Source: Candidatus Marinacidobacterales bacterium
Lineage (GTDB): Bacteria; Acidobacteriota; Vicinamibacteria; Marinacidobacterales; SMYC01
Assembly (NCBI GenBank): GCA_965224085.1
Contig: CBDCYI010000009.1
Coordinates: forward strand, 96,001-160,000
DNA: 64,000 nt
Direction: 5' to 3'
Shown here: piece after piece, positions 1 to 8,212 of the stretch
How the letters are laid out: every line of letters starts with the position of its first letter
How positions within the stretch are numbered: position 1 is the stretch's first letter
Made by a program: the position numbers and the translations under genes
Notes under the pieces: generated by a model
Told to the model about the DNA's origin: nothing
The model's database searches: none
The model's input: only the letters and a program-made list of their open reading frames with translations

Positions 1-324
1 GTGCCCATGCGCCAATGCGCCGAGCTCGCCGTCGAGGAGATCAACGCGCGGGGGTCGGCTCCCTTCCGATGGAAGCTGGTGGCGGAAGACGACCGGGCCG
101 ATCCCAAGGTCGCCGTCGACGTCGCGCGCCGCTTCGTCGACGACCCCGCCGTCATCGGTGTGGTTGGACACAAGAACAGCGGTCCTTCGGAGGCGGCAGC
201 GCCCATCTACGCCGAGGCCGGTCTCACCCAAATGACGCCTTCGTCGACCAATCCCGCTTTGAGCCGAAAGGGTTATCGCACCTTCTTCCGCCTCTGCGCA
301 CACGATACCCGGCAGGGCGAGGAG
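1..324 (+). repeat. Partial copy of the branched-chain amino acid ABC substrate-binding gene (matches 25022-25345)
   Basis: Direct comparison: 324 bp identical to 25022-25345 except one mismatch (300 a vs 25321 g); similarity stops after ...cagggcgaggag. Confidence 0.95.
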
Positions 325-669
325 AGAAGCGTCGTCGTGGGCCGCGGCGCTCACTATGTGGTGGCCCCCGATGAGGCGCTTCGAGTTCGAGTCGTGTGTT
401 CGCTTGAAGAGCGTGTCCGCCGGTACAGCGAGCACGAGGGAACGAGTCTCGATGCCGCCCGCAAGATTTTGGATCGTGAGGACGCTGCGCGTGCCCGCTT
501 CCTGCGCCACAACTACGGGAGCGATGGGACGAACCCGGCCGACTACGACTTGATCGTCAATACGGGACCGATACCGCTCGAGCGGGCTGCCGCGCCGATC
601 CTCGCCGCCTACGAAGCGAAGTTTGCTCGCAGACCCGGGGAGGCGGAAACAGAACCCCTCAGATCTTGA
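325..669 (+). pseudogene. C-terminal half of a cytidylate-kinase-like protein, fused in frame to the SBP copy
   Basis: VVVGRGAHYV...RVRVVCSLEERVRR...D.ARARF...YDLIVNTG is typical of the cytidylate kinase-like family; the N-terminal P-loop is missing. Confidence 0.75.
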
Positions 670-744
670 TCGCCAGGTCGGCGCCGTCGCGGGAGGAGAA
701 ACCTCGTAGGTGACTGCCATGGAGCAGACGCGTGTCGCTTCCAC

Positions 745-892
745 TTAGCTCTTGATCGCCAGAACGTCTTCGATCGCCGCGCGGTCCACTCGACCCTCAT
801 TTCGAAGGATCTGCCGTTTGGCCACCTCGTGTGAGACAACATCACCTGAGTCAGCGGCCTCCAGAGCGCGATCGATCTTCTTCTTAACGTAA
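745..892 (-). pseudogene. Remnant of a RelE/ParE-type toxin-antitoxin pair (antitoxin 3' end plus toxin 5' end)
   Basis: YVKKKIDRALEAADSGDVVSHEVAKRQIL, then ATG at 800 giving MRVEWTAR/AIEDVLAIKS with a 1-nt frameshift and an early stop. Confidence 0.6.
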
Positions 893-1047
893 CGTCCAAG
901 ATCGAAAGCGTGAAAGGGTGGAGCAGCTGGTTCTGGAGAAGAGCTTGCTTCCGTCGAGAGCCGAGCACACGTCGTACTTCTGACATGTATTGAACTGTCA
1001 AGTCCCGGCACGATCTTTTTTATAGCATCCGATCTCCCACGCTCATC

Positions 1048-1223
1048 TGGTCAGGGCACGAGCAGCATGAAGCGACGGTGAATCAACCTGATATACGCGT
1101 GTTGGTTAACGCCTGATATGTATTCGTCGCGGAGCTGCCTCTGTCTACTGGCGAGTGTTCTCCCGATAGGGGAGTCTCTTAGCACATTACGAGGATTCTC
1201 CAACCGGGCTCCTCGTGCCCTGG
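1048..1223 (-). ncRNA. Putative bridge/seek RNA downstream of the IS110 transposase
   Basis: Closing stem CAGGGCACGAG/CTCGTGCCCTG (1222-1212 / 1062-1052) enclosing two internal-loop hairpins; loop CCAGTAGA (1151-1144) is identical to the flank plus core (1771-1764); loop AATACATATCAG resembles the element end AATACATGTCAG. Confidence 0.7.
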
Positions 1224-1325
1224 CCACATCGTTGCGATGCCGACCTGTTCTGCCTGTTGCGCGGTATCGTGTGTCGTGGTGATCCACCTCCTGAGTCCGG
1301 AACCTCCGGCGGATGCCGCCGGGAA

Positions 1326-1667
1326 CTCACCAGAGCGAAACAGCGACGCTAACTTCAACCCATCGCGACGATCCGTCTTCACTCGCTCGCCAGGTTTCTT
1401 CGGAATCAACGACGGCGCCACCACTACACAATCGTGACCCGTCTCTTTAATCCAACGGTAAACTTCGTATCCACACGGTCCCGCCTCGTAACAGAATCCA
1501 AGCACTTCGCCCTCTCGCGAGAGGCGATGGACCAGATTCTGAATTGACTTCTTCGTGTTGGCGATCACACCCAGCGATTCGGGCTTGGACCGACCCGGGT
1601 TCGCCAACGCTGGCGAGATCGTCTCCTTGTGTACGTCCAGTCCCACGTATCCGCTATACTCTTCCAC
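1326..1667 (-). pseudogene. IS110 transposase, N-terminal DEDD domain only (about 114 aa)
   Basis: YVGLDVHK...CYEAGPCG...KTDRRDG motifs; homology ends at LFRSGE; RBS AGGAGG upstream of the GTG start. Confidence 0.9.
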
Positions 1668-1799
1668 GACCTGTCCTCCTTGATTATGGCTCTGAGCCTT
1701 CTTGCTAGATCCTCGAAAGCTTAACCCACGCCCTCAAGGTCAGGGCAGGTTCAATACATACTATCTACTGGGCTCGGCTAGAGCTAGAATGCCGACACT

Positions 1800-3164
1800 A
1801 TGGAATACCGGACGGTGAATCCGACGACAGGAGAGCTCATCGAGAGATTCCCGAATGCCGCCGATGCAGATGCCGCCAGGGCACTCGATGCCGCCACGGC
1901 TGGTTTCGCCACCTGGTCGAAGAGCCCCTTTGCCGAGCGTCGGGAGCTCCTACGGTCGCTCGCACAACGGCTCGAGGGGAGAGCCACGCCCTTTGCGGAG
2001 ACCATGGCACTCGAGATGGGTAAGCCGCTTGCGGAAGGCGAGGCCGAGGCGAAGAAGTGCGCCTGGGTCTGTCGCTACTACGCCGAGGAGGGCGAGCGGG
2101 CGCTCGCGCCGGACTCCCACGAGTCCGACGGGTCCGAAGCCTATGTGCGTTACGACGCGCTGGGGCCCATTCTCGCGATCATGCCCTGGAATTTTCCCTT
2201 CTGGCAGGTCTTCCGCTTCATGGCGCCAGCGATGGCCGCCGGCAACGTCACGATCCTGAAGCACGCGCCCGGTGTCCCGCGTTGCGCGCTCGCGATCTCC
2301 GATCTGATGAAGGAAGCGGGCACGCCGGAGGGCGTCTTTCAGAATCTCTTTCTTGGAAACGACCAGGCGGCGCGCGTGATACGGGACCCAAGAATCCAGG
2401 GGGTGACGCTCACGGGAAGCTCCCGAGCGGGAAAGCAGGTCGGCGCGGTGGCTGGCGGAAACCTCAAGACGATGGTGATGGAGCTCGGCGGCAGCGACCC
2501 GTTCGTCGTTTTCGCGGATGCCGATCTCGACGAAGCGGCCGAAGTCGGTGCGCTGGCTCGCTGCATCAACTCCGGTCAGAGCTGCGTGTCGGCGAAACGT
2601 TTCCTCGTGGAGCGTTCCGCTTTCGACGATTTCGAGAAGCGCTTCATCGAACGGCTTTCGACACGGAAGGTGGGCGATCCGACAGACCGCTCGGTCCAGA
2701 TCGGGCCGCTGGCGCGGAAGGACTTGAAAGACAACCTGGTCCGTCAGGTTTCAGAGAGCGTCGCCGCGGGCGCCGAGGTGGTGTTTCGCGGTGAGGCCCC
2801 CGACGGCCCGGGCTTCTTCTATCCGGTGTCGGCCATCACGAAAGTGACCGAGGAGATGCCCGCCTATAGCGAAGAGCTCTTCGGACCGGCCGCGGTGCTC
2901 CTGCCGTTCGACGACGAGGATCGCGCGGTCTCGGTGGCCAACGACACCTCGTACGGGCTCGGCGCCAGCCTGTGGACGAGCGACCGCTCCCGCGCCGAGC
3001 GGCTAATCCCGCGCATCGAGGCGGGCGCGGTCTTCATCAACGGTCTCGTGAAATCGGATCCAAGGATCCCTTTCGGGGGAATCAAGGAATCCGGTTTCGG
3101 GCGCGAGCTCGCCTACGAAGGCCTGCGGGAGTTCGTGAACCGCAAGACGGTCTGGATCAAGTGA
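1800..3164 (+). CDS. NAD(P)-dependent succinate-semialdehyde dehydrogenase (Sad/GabD1-like aldehyde dehydrogenase)
   Basis: IMPWNFPFWQ, LTGS, MELGGSDP, NSGQSC (catalytic Cys), EELFGP, PFGGIKESGFGRE. Confidence 0.9.
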   Translation: MEYRTVNPTTGELIERFPNAADADAARALDAATAGFATWSKSPFAERRELLRSLAQRLEGRATPFAETMALEMGKPLAEGEAEAKKCAWVCRYYAEEGERALAPDSHESDGSEAYVRYDALGPILAIMPWNFPFWQVFRFMAPAMAAGNVTILKHAPGVPRCALAISDLMKEAGTPEGVFQNLFLGNDQAARVIRDPRIQGVTLTGSSRAGKQVGAVAGGNLKTMVMELGGSDPFVVFADADLDEAAEVGALARCINSGQSCVSAKRFLVERSAFDDFEKRFIERLSTRKVGDPTDRSVQIGPLARKDLKDNLVRQVSESVAAGAEVVFRGEAPDGPGFFYPVSAITKVTEEMPAYSEELFGPAAVLLPFDDEDRAVSVANDTSYGLGASLWTSDRSRAERLIPRIEAGAVFINGLVKSDPRIPFGGIKESGFGRELAYEGLREFVNRKTVWIK

Positions 3165-3200
3165 ACCGCCGACGCCGCGTCGCGTTCGTCTTGCGTCGTC

Positions 3201-3428
3201 TCACCCGTGTGGACCCAGATAGATACCCTGCGGGTCGAGCTCGTCCCGAAGAAGCTCCAGAACATCTTTGCCGGGACGCGCGGTGATCGAGAGGGGTTCT
3301 TTGATTTTCAATGGCCAGCCTACCTCGGACCGGACCTCATCGACACTCACCCCAGGATGGAGCTTCTCCAGCACCATTTCCCGCGACTCGGGATCGAAGC
3401 CGTAGACACCCAGGTTGGTGATCACCCT
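3201..3428 (-). pseudogene. C-terminal fragment of a CoA-transferase beta subunit
   Basis: VITNLGVYGFD...LEKLHPGVSVDEVRSEVGWPL...LLRDELDPQGIYLG*. Confidence 0.75.
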
Positions 3429-3429
3429 C

Positions 3430-3805
3430 TCGCAGACGCTTTGCCACTTCCAGGTTGTGCTGGTACTTGGGATTGTCTTCCGGCGGTTCTTCCACTGCCA
3501 GGGCGTCCCGAAGGCGTTTTTCGTTGTGAGGGTGAAACTTCTTCGATTCAACGATGTCTTCGAGCGTCTGGTAGGGTGCGTGGGGCCCCAGGCTCTCCAG
3601 GTATCGATTGAAGTCGTACTTCAGGCTGCCCGCTCTTCTCCGGAACGAGTCACGGATCTCTTGCAAGCCCTCGATCCGTACCGGGTCGATGAGGGTGGCG
3701 CCGAGCGATCTCAGCTCGGCCAGGGCCTCTTCCATCACCCGCAGCACTTCGGGATCGGCGTCCCCCGGTGCGAACAACTGGCGGGCCACACCGAGGCGAG
3801 CGTAG
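3430..3805 (-). pseudogene. Internal fragment of an amidase-family protein
   Basis: ARLGVARQLF...EEALAELRSLGATLIDPV...LKYDFNRYLESLG...TLEDIV. Confidence 0.7.
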
Positions 3806-4006
3806 GTTTTTGAAATTGCAGTGTCAAAAACGCCAGGAAAGGTAGCCGAGCGTTGTCGTCTTCGACGTCGCGATTTTGTTCCCTTCTTCGTACAACGTCA
3901 GCCGGCGACGGTCGTGATGGAAGCCTGCGGTAGTGCCCATCATTGGGGGCGCGAAATAACTCAACTTGGTCATAACGTGAGGCTACTACCCACGCTTCAC
4001 ACCAAG

Positions 4007-5373
4007 GGATGTGTCCCGAGGTTCGTGGAAAAAGAACGGCGCCCTCCACTCCGTCATCAGGGTATCAGATCAGGCGGCAACCTCCGCGTGTTTGAGAACC
4101 TCGCTCAGACCTTGGTAGCCGTCGATGCGCCGTAGTTGAATCTGGCCAGAGGCGATAAGCCCAAACAGCAAAGCGACCGCGGACTCCTCGCTGGAGAACG
4201 ACGCTTGGGTTTTCGTCCGACGTCGAAACTCGCGGTTGAGATTCTCCAGAGCATTGGTCGTGCGAATCGATTTCCACATGACACGAGGGAATTCGTAGAA
4301 GGTCAGCAGCTGATTACCGGCCTCCTCTAGGCTTCGGACGACGGCCGGTGTGAGAGGCGTCCACTTGGCGACGAGTTCGCCATAGGCTTTGCGAGCATCG
4401 ATCCCGTTCTTGGCGTAGACGATCCGGTTGTAGTCACGCCGGAGTTCACGGCGTGCGTGCGCCGGGCAATGTTCGAGCAAGTTGGCGCGCTTGTGCTCGG
4501 TACATCGCTGCACCCGGCACCCCGGCCACTTCTCGAGCGCTTTCGTCAGCCCCTTGTGGCCATCGCTAATCACTAGCTTGGGAGCCCGGAGTCCTTGAGC
4601 CTGGAGTCCCTCCAGCATGGAGCCCCAATGCGTCGAGGCTTCGCTCACCGCCAGACGCAATGACAACAGACGTTTCTGCCCGTCTGGCGTGACCCCGAGC
4701 GCGGCCAGTACGGGTACGCTGATCACACGCTTCGCCATCCGCACTTTCAGGTGGAAGCCGTCCAGGTAAACGATCGCATAGACCTCCTCGCTGAGATCAC
4801 GGTTCTGCCATTCTTCGAAGCACTCCTTCAGACGACTAACCACGCGAGACACCGCGCTCTTCGATAGGTGCTCCTCACCGAGCAGCGGTTTCAGCGCTTT
4901 GCGGATCCGGCGGCTATTCGCGCCCGACAAGTACGTCCCCAAGATCGCCTCGTCGACCTCACGAGTCCGGCGTGCATACCGGGGCAACAGCTCGCTCCTG
5001 AACTCTGTCGTTTCTCCCGTTTCCTCGTCTCGCACGCGGGCTCGTGGCACCCGGAGCTCGCGTGTTCCCACCGACGTCGTCACGCGACGGGTTTCGGCTC
5101 CGTTGCGATACCCACGGCGGTCTTCCGCACGCTCGTAGCTACGACACCCCAGCGCTTGGTCGACTTCTTCCTCGAGCACAACCTCGATCGCCTCCAGTAC
5201 CCGCTTACGCAGCCGAAGTTGGACGAACTCCCGGTACTCGCTTACGGACTCCTTCGATATGGTGGTAGGCTTCTTCATGGCGTAATCCTCCTCCTCGCCG
5301 TTACAGGCGTGGTTTGGTTTTTCTTAACCGGAGGTTACGCCATTCTTATTTCCACGGGAATCGGGACAGATCC
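4007..5373 (-). mobile_element. IS256-family insertion sequence, complete
   Basis: About 35-bp imperfect terminal IRs (GGATGTGTCCCGA..CGTGGAAA.AAGAA.GGCG at 4007-4041 and 5338-5373); 8-bp TSD ACACCAAG at 3999-4006 and 5374-5381. Confidence 0.95.
4070..5278 (-). CDS. IS256 (mutator-type) DDE transposase
   Basis: GYRNG..R...T.VG..L.VPR.R, VYLDG, VISDGHKGL, QRC..H, IRTTNALENLNREFRRRTK. Confidence 0.95.
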   Translation of the reverse strand: MKKPTTISKESVSEYREFVQLRLRKRVLEAIEVVLEEEVDQALGCRSYERAEDRRGYRNGAETRRVTTSVGTRELRVPRARVRDEETGETTEFRSELLPRYARRTREVDEAILGTYLSGANSRRIRKALKPLLGEEHLSKSAVSRVVSRLKECFEEWQNRDLSEEVYAIVYLDGFHLKVRMAKRVISVPVLAALGVTPDGQKRLLSLRLAVSEASTHWGSMLEGLQAQGLRAPKLVISDGHKGLTKALEKWPGCRVQRCTEHKRANLLEHCPAHARRELRRDYNRIVYAKNGIDARKAYGELVAKWTPLTPAVVRSLEEAGNQLLTFYEFPRVMWKSIRTTNALENLNREFRRRTKTQASFSSEESAVALLFGLIASGQIQLRRIDGYQGLSEVLKHAEVAA

Positions 5374-5406
5374 ACACCAAGCCCTACGTCCGATGAAACA
5401 AAACCG

Positions 5407-7215
5407 CCGGGCTCGATCATCGTCGTGGGATGGATCTCGAAAGGATCTGTGGGCTGCTCGAGGCTGCCACGTCGACCGAGGGCGACGAAGCCACCACTTT
5501 GCAGCCGAAACGAGACGCGGACGTTGACGTAACGGCTCACCACCTTGCCCTGCTGGTCCATGAAGTGGTCGAAATCCACGTTGGGGCCGATCTCGCGCGC
5601 ACGATGCCCCGCCACCAGGGCTGACGGTAGCGGTACCGGACGTTGGCCCTCGCCCGCCGAACGCCGAGCCGCGGCGCGAAGCCGACTTCCGGGTTGAAAT
5701 TGTCCTGGAGACTCGAGTACGACGCCGAAAAATTCAGCGACCTCGAGGTGAAGGCGTAGGCGATGCGGCCGGCGAAGTCGTCTCCTTCGAGCCCGGGCGT
5801 TGCTGTTTTGGCAATGTAGGCATTGACGTCCATCGCCGGATTGAGACGGAAGTTGCCATCCACACCGATGCTCCGGTTGTAGTGGGACGAGTCCATCGTG
5901 TCCCGGTTGATGAACATGACGCCGATGTCGGAGTTGGCGAAGACGTTTCGCTTCACCCGCACGACGCTGAAGGCGTCGCCCGTCGAGATGCCCACCTCTC
6001 TTCACCGGTCAACATCCCGAGAAACCCGAACTGGTAGGGTCCCGCACCGCCGGTGAGGCGTCCTCCCGCTCGTACCGGGATGGGCTCACCCTCTTCGGAG
6101 AGGCCGATCCTCCTGCTGAAGAACAGGAGTAAATCGTTGCCCCGGCTCTGACCACCACGCACACCTCCTCCCGCCGCCAGGCCGAAACTGCTCCGAAAAG
6201 CCCTCCGCTGCCGGCTCTCCGGTGGACCGAAACGAAAGATGCCCGAGTTCTCGAGGAAGAAATCTCGTTTCTCGGGAAAGAAGAGGCTGAACCGCGTCAG
6301 GTTCACCTGCTGCACGTCGGCCTCTACCTGGGAGAAATCGGTATTGGGTGTCAGGTCCAGCGTCAGGCCGGCGCCGATGCCGATCTTCGCGTCGAGGTCC
6401 GCATCGAAATCCCCTTCCCGGAGCGCTTGCTCGTTCTCGGTGACGTCGCCGGTTACGTAGGGCATGAGCTTGAAACTCGATCCGGGGCGCACGTCCCGCA
6501 TCTCCTCCAAGGTCCCGGCGAGCGAAACGCGGGTTGCGGTATGGATCCGTGGAATGGGCGACCAGAAGCTGTCCTCGTTCAGTCGCCGGTTCCGGCGCAT
6601 GAAGTTGACGCCCCAGGTTTGAATCGCGGCATCGCTGAACTTGAGGGTCTTGAAGGGGATGGAGATCTCCGCCGTCCAGCCCGTCTCGACGATGCGCGTG
6701 GCGACATGCCACACACCGTCCCAGTTGGAGTTGGACTCCTGCCCCTCGTTGAACGACTGAGTGTCGTATTTGGCCCCCATCGGATTCGTCTGGAACATGT
6801 AGCTGTTGCGACGATCGTGGAACGTGTCCAGGATGATGGCGAAGGAATCGACGGAGCGCGTGTTGTAGTCGCGGGTCAGGTCGCGGATGATGAGCTTGTC
6901 CGGCTCGTCGTCGTAGGCCCGAACGCCGATATACAGGTTCTGGTCGTCGTAGAGAACCCGGACCTCGGTATCGAAAGTGGCAGGCTCCCCCTCCCGGGGC
7001 TCGCTCTGGATGAAGTCCTTGGCCACCGGGGCCTCGCGCCAATCGCCCTCCTCGAGCGCCCCGTCGAGAAGGATGTCTCCGTCCGTGCGCACCGCCATGA
7101 GTCGCCGTTCGAGGCGCGCCGTCTCGTAGTCGATGGGCCCATTTTGATTTTGAGGCTCCGCATGGACGGGCACCGCGAGGGCGAGAACGAGGAGGAGCGG
7201 TTGCGGAAATCTCAT
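5407..7215 (-). pseudogene. CBM9-like/DUF5916 protein, frameshifted and 3'-truncated
   Basis: Signal peptide, DG.L.E..W, WT.EI.IPF..L, NTDFSQVEAD..QVNLTRFSLFFPEKRDFFLE; frame change near 5997, internal junction near 5600, ends against the IS110 remnant. Confidence 0.8.
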
Positions 7216-7306
7216 CAATAACCAGGGCGGGGGGCCGCCCTGATTCTATCCGAGACCGCGCTCCGCCCGAAGCGGCAGCACCTAACCTCACTTCCGAGAC
7301 GGGACA

Positions 7307-8212
7307 CTAGCTCCTCGACGGCGCGGAGAAATCGATGGCGTTCAGTGCTTCCTGCATCTTCTGCAGAGTGTCCTCGGGAAGAGGCAGATAGGGCTGGCGC
7401 GTGAAGCCGCCGCGCCTCCCCAGGAGGTTCATACAGGCTTTCACCGTCGGGTAGTTCCCCGCGCCGAATCGGGAGATGATCGCGTAGACGGCGTCGATCA
7501 CCGACTGGTGCTTCAGCCCCTCCGCCCAGCGTCCCGCCGTCGCATGCTCGTAGTAGGCGACCACGTCCGCGCAGCAGACGTTGGCCACCATCGACACGAT
7601 TCCCACCGCGCCCCGGTGGATCATCGTCATCCCGTAGGGCTCCATGCCGGTGAAGACGGCGAGCCGACCCTTGACACGATCCAGCGTCTGCGATTTCTGG
7701 AAGAGATCCTTGGAGCTGTCTTTCAAGGCCACGACCGAATCGAAATCGGCAATCTGGTCCATCAACGTGGCATCGAGGTTGATCTGCGTTCGGTTGGGAT
7801 TGTTGTAAACCATGATCGGCAGGCCCACCTTCGCCACCGACTCGAAGTGTGCGACCACCTCACGAGGAGTCGGAAGCGCGTAGGGCGTCGGGAGCAGCAG
7901 TGCACCGTCACAGCCGATTCTTTTTGCCTCCCGGGTGAGCGCCACTGCCTGGTCGGTTCCAATGGCGGACGTGCCGGCCAGAAGAGGCTTGCCGTCCACT
8001 TGATCTCTTCCGATCTCGAACATTCGAATGCGCTCGCGGTCGGTGAGCGAGAACCACTCGCCGGTGCTGCCGGCCACGATGATGCCGTGCGCCCCTTCCT
8101 CCAGCTGCTGGTCGATGACGCTGCGAAAGGCCCGTTCGTCGATCTCGCCATCCTTCGTGAAGGGCGTTGCGGTCGCAGGGAAAACACCCCTCCAATCCGT
8201 TTCTCCTGCCAT
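7307..8212 (-). CDS. Dihydrodipicolinate synthase (DapA)-family aldolase/dehydratase
   Basis: TPF, GSTGE, YNNP, LKDSS (Schiff-base Lys); TGATG overlap with the upstream symporter. Confidence 0.9.
   Translation of the reverse strand: MAGETDWRGVFPATATPFTKDGEIDERAFRSVIDQQLEEGAHGIIVAGSTGEWFSLTDRERIRMFEIGRDQVDGKPLLAGTSAIGTDQAVALTREAKRIGCDGALLLPTPYALPTPREVVAHFESVAKVGLPIMVYNNPNRTQINLDATLMDQIADFDSVVALKDSSKDLFQKSQTLDRVKGRLAVFTGMEPYGMTMIHRGAVGIVSMVANVCCADVVAYYEHATAGRWAEGLKHQSVIDAVYAIISRFGAGNYPTVKACMNLLGRRGGFTRQPYLPLPEDTLQKMQEALNAIDFSAPSRS

Follow-up and report, generated by a model that had tools for sequence, protein, structure and literature searches.

The window analysed here (the whole stretch of DNA, 64,000 nt in length) carries at positions 980-1766, on the minus strand, a 787-bp derivative of an IS1111-type element of the IS110 family, counting both copies of its AG core. 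With a probability of roughly 85%, this unit is what a deletion has left of a 2.1-kb element, and its mobility is lost or nearly so. An intact parent of this size occupies the same locus in a genome of the same genus (G003), and the deletion that separates the two copies is bridged by contigs from other studies. We infer that mobility was lost from three features: the cognate recombinase is missing, the right flank is not cognate to the guide RNA and the right tip is mutated. The first-pass annotation, which had placed the element at 979-1766 (788 bp), was correct to within 1 nt. It had also proposed that the unit could be a MITE-like miniature IS110; an internal-deletion derivative with its ends, promoter halves and guide gene is what was found, whereas mobilisation in trans as a MITE is not supported.

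Ends, core and junction promoter

Read on the minus strand, the element opens with AG, followed by the left end (tip ATAGT, the repeat ATGTATTGAAC and a 23-nt box) and a GTG-started ORF. Approximately 345 nt of non-coding DNA lie 3' of the recombinase remnant and lead into the right end (TTGACA, GTTCAATACAT, tip GTC) and the second AG (Table 1). The AG dinucleotide is present at both boundaries in the window copy and in the aligned relatives, as is characteristic of the IS110 family, and the window copy has the subterminal inverted repeats of the IS1111 subgroup. The 11-bp repeat that had been described previously (ATGTATTGAAC) is indeed found at both ends, its version in the G003 parent being 12 bp and perfect. 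The ends themselves had also been identified properly, but with an AGA core; as 12 aligned right ends continue after AG with A, C, T or G, the core is AG and the third A belongs to the flank. The 23-nt box is possibly a recombinase-binding box. Ends, repeats and promoter halves recur in register among the relatives more than would be expected by chance. The right tip of the window copy is CATGTCAG; of the 18 other right ends, 17 have CATATCAG and one has CATTTCAG. The window substitution mismatches the window's own donor-like segment 2.

Table 1. Features of the IS110-family relic and its flanks (window coordinates; sequences and flanks are in element orientation).
Feature	Position	Strand	Description
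Right flank (RT)	974..979	-	AAGTAC in element orientation; guide-predicted CACATT; match 1/6; G003 is 2117 bp longer exactly here
Right-end AG core copy	980..981	-	12 right ends all finish ...TCAG, followed by variable bases
Right-end tip	982..1001	-	5 nt outside the repeat (ATGTC); right inverted repeat 985-995; -35 half TTGACA 996-1001
23-nt box TGCCCTGACC..GAGCGTGGG	1036..1058	-	Direct-orientation repeat near the left end; G003 parent repeat D1, 78% identity
Guide RNA core (seekRNA/bridge-RNA-like)	1047..1223	-	Predicted fold: outer stem enclosing target-binding and donor-binding loops, each with a distal hairpin
Donor-like segment 3, GTATATCAGG	1087..1096	-	G010 copy: changed in step with the right tip (ATTTCA alongside ATTTCAG)
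Donor-like segment 2, AATACATATCAG	1113..1124	-	Copies right-end tip and core; 12/12 in G003 (repeat D9), 11/12 in the window
B guide, CCAGTAGAC	1143..1151	-	Equals left target CCAGT, core AG and start of left end; window left flank 5/5
T guide, AATGTGCTA	1180..1188	-	Equals bottom strand of right target and core; predicts right flank CACATT
Remaining lineage-specific non-coding region	1224..1323	-	GC hairpin CCGGCGG-CAT-CCGCCGG at the deletion junction; absent from the 1503-bp G013 element
Deletion junction	1323..1324	.	Parent 444-1737 lost; X2 record 8 and X6 record 19 span it (0 differences)
Recombinase gene remnant	1324..1667	-	First 115 aa, RuvC-like DEDD domain; 99% identical to G003 protein aa 1-115
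Left-end non-coding region	1668..1764	-	23-nt box 1725-1747; left inverted repeat 1749-1759; -10 half TAGTAT 1758-1763; tip ATAGT
Left-end AG core copy	1765..1766	-	Alignment of ends
Left flank (LT) CCAGT	1767..1771	-	Cognate to the B guide, 5/5; G003 flank the same

When the right and left ends are joined in silico through one AG, the -35 half in the right end and the -10 half in the left end form the site TTGACA-17-TAGTAT (10/12 matches, 17-nt spacer). Positions 700-2000 of the linear form contain no promoter-like site (shuffle mean 0.4), in agreement with the initial observation that this pair exists only when the ends are joined. Among the nine two-ended relatives, seven score at least 10/12 in this register, their -10 halves being CATAAT, TAGAAT, CATTAT or CAGAAT, and the other two score 8/12; TTGACA is found in 12 of 19 right ends. 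The junction promoter halves are a feature of the family. Junction promoters are known for both IS1111 and IS110 elements (PMC11187229; PMC12288879), and the joined ends would be expected to function as one here.

A full-length parent and the internal deletion

The element of G003 is 2082 bp in length and matches the window element over positions 1-451 and 443-788 at 99% identity, the two parts being separated by 1294 bp. Its coding sequence occupies positions 100-1218 and is followed by 864 nt of non-coding sequence, of which only the last ~260 nt are conserved; a long region of this kind downstream of tnp is typical of the IS1111 subgroup. Because both window flanks map next to the G003 element (window 330-978 and 1767-2400, 99-100% identity), the two copies are orthologous. 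The window copy is the parent minus positions 444-1737 (1294 bp), joined with 1-nt microhomology. Lost in this deletion were the coiled-coil domain, the catalytic Tnp domain and approximately 520 nt of non-coding DNA. As the parent occupies the orthologous locus in G003, the small size of the window copy is explained by a deletion in place and does not require transposition.

What is left of the recombinase gene corresponds closely to the earlier estimate of a transposase that stops after about 114 aa: the first 115 aa remain, with PF01548 (DEDD_Tnp_IS110) matched over aa 8-115 (E-value: 2.8e-8; profile positions 1-112 of 155). Beyond the remnant, the window ORF (1179-1667, minus strand) runs out of frame down to 1179. 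Against NF033542 it scores 68.2 bits over profile positions 1-112 of 343, missing the full-length cut-off of 140, and the C-terminal Tnp domain (PF02371) is absent from the window copy. Judging by these matches, the window copy is a remnant and not a functional IS110-family member. The G003 parent protein (372 aa) has no stops, contains both PF01548 and PF02371 (E-value: 7.4e-22) and scores 257.9 bits on NF033542 (cut-off 140). It shows distant homology to the solved structures of ISCro4 and IS621 (9t56_A, E-value: 1.8e-6; 8wt6_A, E-value: 5.5e-5). Transposases of the IS1111 subgroup are reported to be 330-350 aa in length with a GL-P----S(t)G motif (PMC11187229); the parent protein is longer than this range and contains the fitting motif GLVPSEHTSG.

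A related relic in G010 (L020 1405-1833) joins parent position 238 directly to 1738, so that its right endpoint is the same as in the window, beside the GC hairpin. This endpoint, common to two independent deletion derivatives, may mark a hotspot or a module boundary. A terminal-repeat-bounded insert that could explain the shared endpoint 1738 was sought in the parent and none was found.

To examine the deletion outside of the source assembly, Logan contigs from four runs (X2, X6, X9 and X15) were compared with window positions 600-2300. Such contigs drop rare variants, and X15 is an RNA library for which window parts without cover were taken as no evidence. A 574-nt contig (X2 record 8) matches positions 829-1402 with 0 differences and spans the right boundary as well as the deletion junction. 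In X6, record 16 (829-1063) spans the right boundary and record 19 (1202-1353) the deletion junction, both with 0 differences. In contrast, X9 record 25 and X15 record 1 reach position 1324 and then run on into parent-only sequence, the loose end of X15 being the reverse complement of the parent sequence just upstream of position 1738, and X9 record 23 departs from the window at 981, like G003. Deleted (X2, X6) and undeleted (X9, X15) forms therefore both exist in nature, in different samples. The source genome is a 12-contig assembly and the relatives are named as MAGs, so the junction might have arisen by collapse or chimeric joining during metagenome assembly. As contigs of two other studies (X2 record 8 and X6 record 19) bridge the junction exactly, and as the undeleted form is present in other runs, such an artefact is barely credible, and the deletion that had been proposed at about 1325 is confirmed between 1323 and 1324. 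The only joint listed in these contigs links 1147 to 1363 in X6 (depth 3.8, side 25) and is taken for another repeat copy.

The surrounding DNA also differs from that of G003. At approximately position 322 the window is missing 3274 bp (G003 8812598-8815871), and this loss (breakpoint ~320-324) gave rise to a chimeric ORF (1-669, plus strand) that combines part of Peripla_BP_6 (aa 2-105) with part of Cytidylate_kin2 (aa 106-188). The window thus has another deletion scar, at a distance of 650 bp from the element. A further indel of 2117 bp is exactly flush with the right tip (window 978-981; L037 1034-3151) and shows AG+AA microhomology. The additional G003 sequence contains a truncated TolB-like ORF, an IS200/IS605-type tnpA and rve-type transposase fragments. 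G002, the only copy returned by a related-locus search of genome contigs, was compared for the direction of this difference; its homology ends at window 891 and it is uninformative there. The deletion flush with the right tip was also considered as a product of guided recombination; the far site matches the guides at ~1/5 and ~1/6 positions, which lends this reading no support, and plain AGAA microhomology is a possible cause. The window's own genome (G000) is 6.9 Mb in size and G003 10.2 Mb. All three differences have the same sign and fall within 1.4 kb, which would fit a deletion-prone region.

The guide RNA and its targets

The last ~260 nt of the element are almost invariant across the aligned relatives with the exception of a few short segments. 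T and B (Table 1) flank a small hairpin, T being located 5' of B; two further segments, in the second loop, are copies of the right tip and AG. In IS1111-type seekRNAs, a segment complementary to the top strand lies 5' of one complementary to the bottom strand and the two overlap at the insertion point (PMC11187229). Here, likewise, the segments match both target strands, overlap at the insertion point and vary with the target. In 10 copies, T predicts 52 of 60 right-flank positions, the first six bases of each flank being compared (shuffle mean 37.9; reached by 3 of 20000 shuffles), and in 7 copies B agrees with 28 of 35 left-flank positions, five per copy (shuffle mean 17.8; reached by 117 of 20000), although, because the copies are related, these shuffle figures are not clean probabilities. 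Both comparisons omit the window and G003_full and count the misses (L081, 3/6; L075, 4/6; L065, 2/5; L076, 3/5). A guide RNA, previously only assumed to be kept by the element, can thus be located at ~1047-1223 on the minus strand, with T and B segments that match the flanks in relatives; in the parent, its ends are predicted to fall inside 1822-2020.

The window guides are identical to those of the parent, and the ends and boxes are unchanged as well, apart from the right-tip substitution, which is the reason that segment 2 matches at 11 rather than 12 positions in the window. The right flank of the G003 parent, like that of the window, agrees with the T prediction at 1/6 positions. Two other full-length copies, L076 and L065, are 99% identical to that of G003, and the left-target guides of the three differ (TCAAT, CCAAT, CCAGT); L065 also has the 5 nt ACATA in place of ATAGT at its left tip. 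To judge from these sequences, differing guides in 99%-identical copies look like natural re-aiming on a very short time scale.

With respect to the fold, the 22-nt inverted repeat I1 of the G003 parent forms the outer stem around both loops. In a hand-drawn structure for 15 relatives, 96.0% of cells are paired, compared to 30.6-46.2% in slid controls. Compensatory changes occur in 2 of 42 pairs across these relatives, a result equalled by 176 of 500 shuffles; as the stems hardly vary, covariation gives the fold no proof. The single-sequence fold has a z-score of -1.93. RNAalifold, applied to 12 right-end modules, produced local hairpins only with 0 compensatory pairs, and no Rfam family was matched in window 1-8000 at E-values up to 1. 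The RNA fold in Table 1 is therefore best read as a model-based prediction.

By analogy with ISEc11 and IS621, the intact element would excise as a circle by recombination at its AG cores, and the abutted right and left ends would form a sigma-70-type promoter. Transcription from this promoter would cross the recombinase gene and continue into the non-coding DNA beyond it, yielding the guide RNA. The T and B segments of this RNA would each pair with one strand of the target CCAGT-AG-CACATT, and its second loop resembles the element's own right tip. In the window lineage, the 1294-bp deletion in place left the cis parts and the guide-RNA gene intact. Given these parts and the cognate left flank, a cognate recombinase arriving from outside might still act on the relic.

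Copies, mobility and comparison with known systems

The element has six matches in the genome that carries it, an assembly of 12 contigs (6.87 Mb, 95% complete); one match is two-ended, and the others are 51-161 bp in length at 81-92% identity. Matches to the element were found in 13 of 61 relatives' genomes; a one-piece match to positions 1-788 is found in the window's own genome and in none of the 60 other genomes. None of the conclusions drawn here depends on G027, an unpublished genome. The 443|1738 junction of the mini form is likewise absent from 14 related metagenome stretches. The additional 788-bp copies that the first-pass annotation had suggested looking for were thus not found, and the full-length parent that it had anticipated was found at the same locus of the sister genome G003 but not in the element's own genome. 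When the parent protein was used in a tblastn search of that genome, 25 hits were obtained, including the window copy and a 75-76% identical fragment at C4:1313k. The remaining hits are mostly 24-29% identical and belong to two other IS110-family groups, with one short hit of 63 aa at 38%. No autonomous recombinase partner was found in this assembly (95% complete); an unassembled, repeated full-length copy is conceivable because the assembly is 95% complete in 12 contigs. Decayed copies are the norm in this family: among 19 genomes of the bacterial family, an intact recombinase gene is present in G003 only. The G013 element (1503 bp) has one TAG and ~300 nt downstream of its gene, and the rest of the family genomes carry fragments.

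A scan of metagenome contigs with an 18-mer of the conserved module returned 29 stretches: 14 true relatives, one with a 30-nt match only and 14 that seem to be chance hits. The relatives include two 2081-bp copies at 99% identity (L076 and L065), and L070, L075 and L069 have recombinase-gene regions that are 71-76% identical at the DNA level. Several relics consisting of a right end only (L012/L078, L023, L003/L055 and L054) start repeatedly within guide segments, at parent ~1879-1880 inside T and at 1930-1937 inside donor-like segment 2. L028 1001-1559 (G003 8742k) has two copies in head-to-head orientation, where the truncated guide module of an inverted copy directly adjoins a left end that has retained 4 nt (CAGT) of its usual flank. 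Contigs C4, C5, C9 and C11 of the window's own genome contain two other multi-copy IS110-family groups (~9 and ~8 tblastn hits). An IS110-like N-terminal ORF is also located 2 kb from the element (window 3821-4135, plus strand), with no Pfam hit at an E-value of 0.01. L003 (G000 C9:652924-656075) is an IS graveyard in which an IS4/IS5-like transposase ORF is split by an IS200/IS605 tnpA, alongside a C-terminal piece of an IS110 and a right-end relic of the window element's family (84% identity).

These data bear on the proposal that the unit is a MITE-like, non-autonomous RNA-guided element that is mobilised in trans and supplies its own targeting RNA. Both ends, the promoter halves and an intact guide gene are retained, and the left flank matches the guide at 5/5 positions. 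Provision of recombinase and seekRNA in trans mobilises laboratory mini-IS that have ends of 50-84 bp (PMC11187229), and a natural MITE-like IS110 derivative, MITEPpu9, has been described (PMC12288879). However, the unit exists as one copy at the same locus as the full-length G003 parent, and its own genome lacks a recombinase above ~25% identity. Its right flank agrees with the guide at 1/6 positions, and its unique right-tip substitution mismatches its own donor-like segment. Furthermore, the circle junction for which a check had been suggested was not seen, as no joint linking 980 with 1766 is present in the contigs of the four runs (rare circles are invisible in contigs). Reports on the importance of the flanks vary: for ISEc11, donor flanks had to match the seekRNA for movement to a new target (PMC11187229), and a minimum target-derived flank is cited as required for ISEc21 excision (PMC13626964), while for ISPpu9 the flanks are described as dispensable for circle formation if the AG dinucleotides are retained (PMC12288879). 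On balance, we consider trans-mobilisation of the window unit to be very unlikely. The same long odds apply to a natural guide-carrying mini-IS that is silent while linear and that, on the arrival of a cognate recombinase, circularises, turns on its junction promoter and expresses its own guide. If this were true, the mini-IS would move, or would re-aim an incoming recombinase (for example, from a full-length copy like that of G003) to CCAGT-AG-CACATT.

A different fate for the remnant would be exaptation, with the guide-RNA module or the 115-aa RuvC-like stub being kept for use by the host or by another element. Between the G003 and G013 elements the guide module is 91% conserved and the recombinase gene 77%, the guide segments of the window are unchanged with respect to the parent, and a 566-nt contig of the RNA library (X15 record 1) covers 1087-1324, though this contig is from a parent-type copy and is no proof of transcription. 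As the window copy is only ~1% diverged from the parent, its intactness requires no selection. The linear form has no promoter-like site, and other right-end fragments of the family are broken off inside the guide region. Exaptation thus appears a shade less probable again than movement in trans. As a further speculation, guide-coding DNA and element tips may act as pseudo-sites that drive the decay of the family, an idea prompted by the recurrence of break points inside the guide segments of other relics and by the indel that abuts the right tip.

We favour the deletion relic, and for that reading the closest known systems are ISEc11, ISKpn4 and ISPa11 (IS1111-type; PMC11187229). The elements share subterminal inverted repeats, a long downstream non-coding region, a junction promoter (here a predicted one), a guide with the same segment order and overlap and, in the parent protein, the GL-P----SG motif. 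They differ in that the parent recombinase is 372 aa rather than 330-350 aa in length, that the host belongs to a marine Acidobacteriota lineage and that the window copy lacks the catalytic half of the gene. IS621 and ISCro4 (PMC13626964) are alike in having a dinucleotide core at both ends, and the two-loop RNA and right-left junction promoter predicted here resemble theirs. Their core, however, is CT on the coding strand and their RNA is located 5' of the gene, whereas the core here is AG and the RNA is 3' of the gene; in addition, both donor-like segments here resemble the right tip.

With regard to small derivatives, MITEPpu9/ssr9 of ISPpu9 is similar to the window unit in being a small IS110-family derivative with AG-bounded ends, no recombinase and an RNA gene (PMC12288879). 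In that report, MITEPpu9 has 8 copies, its minicircles have been detected and its regulatory sRNA is not needed for transposition. The window unit, in contrast, is single-copy, has no recombinase source and carries a targeting RNA itself. Laboratory mini-IS, in which ISEc11 or ISEc21 ends surround a cargo, indicate that the ends suffice in cis when recombinase and guide are supplied in trans; these constructs had guide-matching flanks (PMC11187229), unlike the window copy with its non-matching right flank. In our literature search, IS110 MITEs with a bridge RNA led to PMC12288879 only, and neither an internal deletion of the transposase in IS1111 elements nor a natural mini-element with its own targeting RNA was found to be reported; the window copy shows no sign of the latter activity.

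As a mini-element the window copy would matter little, being one more decayed IS at a time when MITEPpu9 and laboratory mini-IS are already published. Its value is that of a natural record from a marine Acidobacteriota lineage, in which hypervariable guides within an invariant RNA scaffold track the insertion flanks. The pair of parent and relic at one locus shows how such an element dies: the catalytic half is lost, the flank of the right end is rearranged and the RNA gene survives. The 372-aa recombinase of G003 and its guide are, moreover, a candidate for a new programmable recombinase from an under-sampled phylum. Set beside the systems above, the window copy is an ordinary relic, left by deletion from an element of a known kind, in which the natural record of guides and targets is unusually easy to read.
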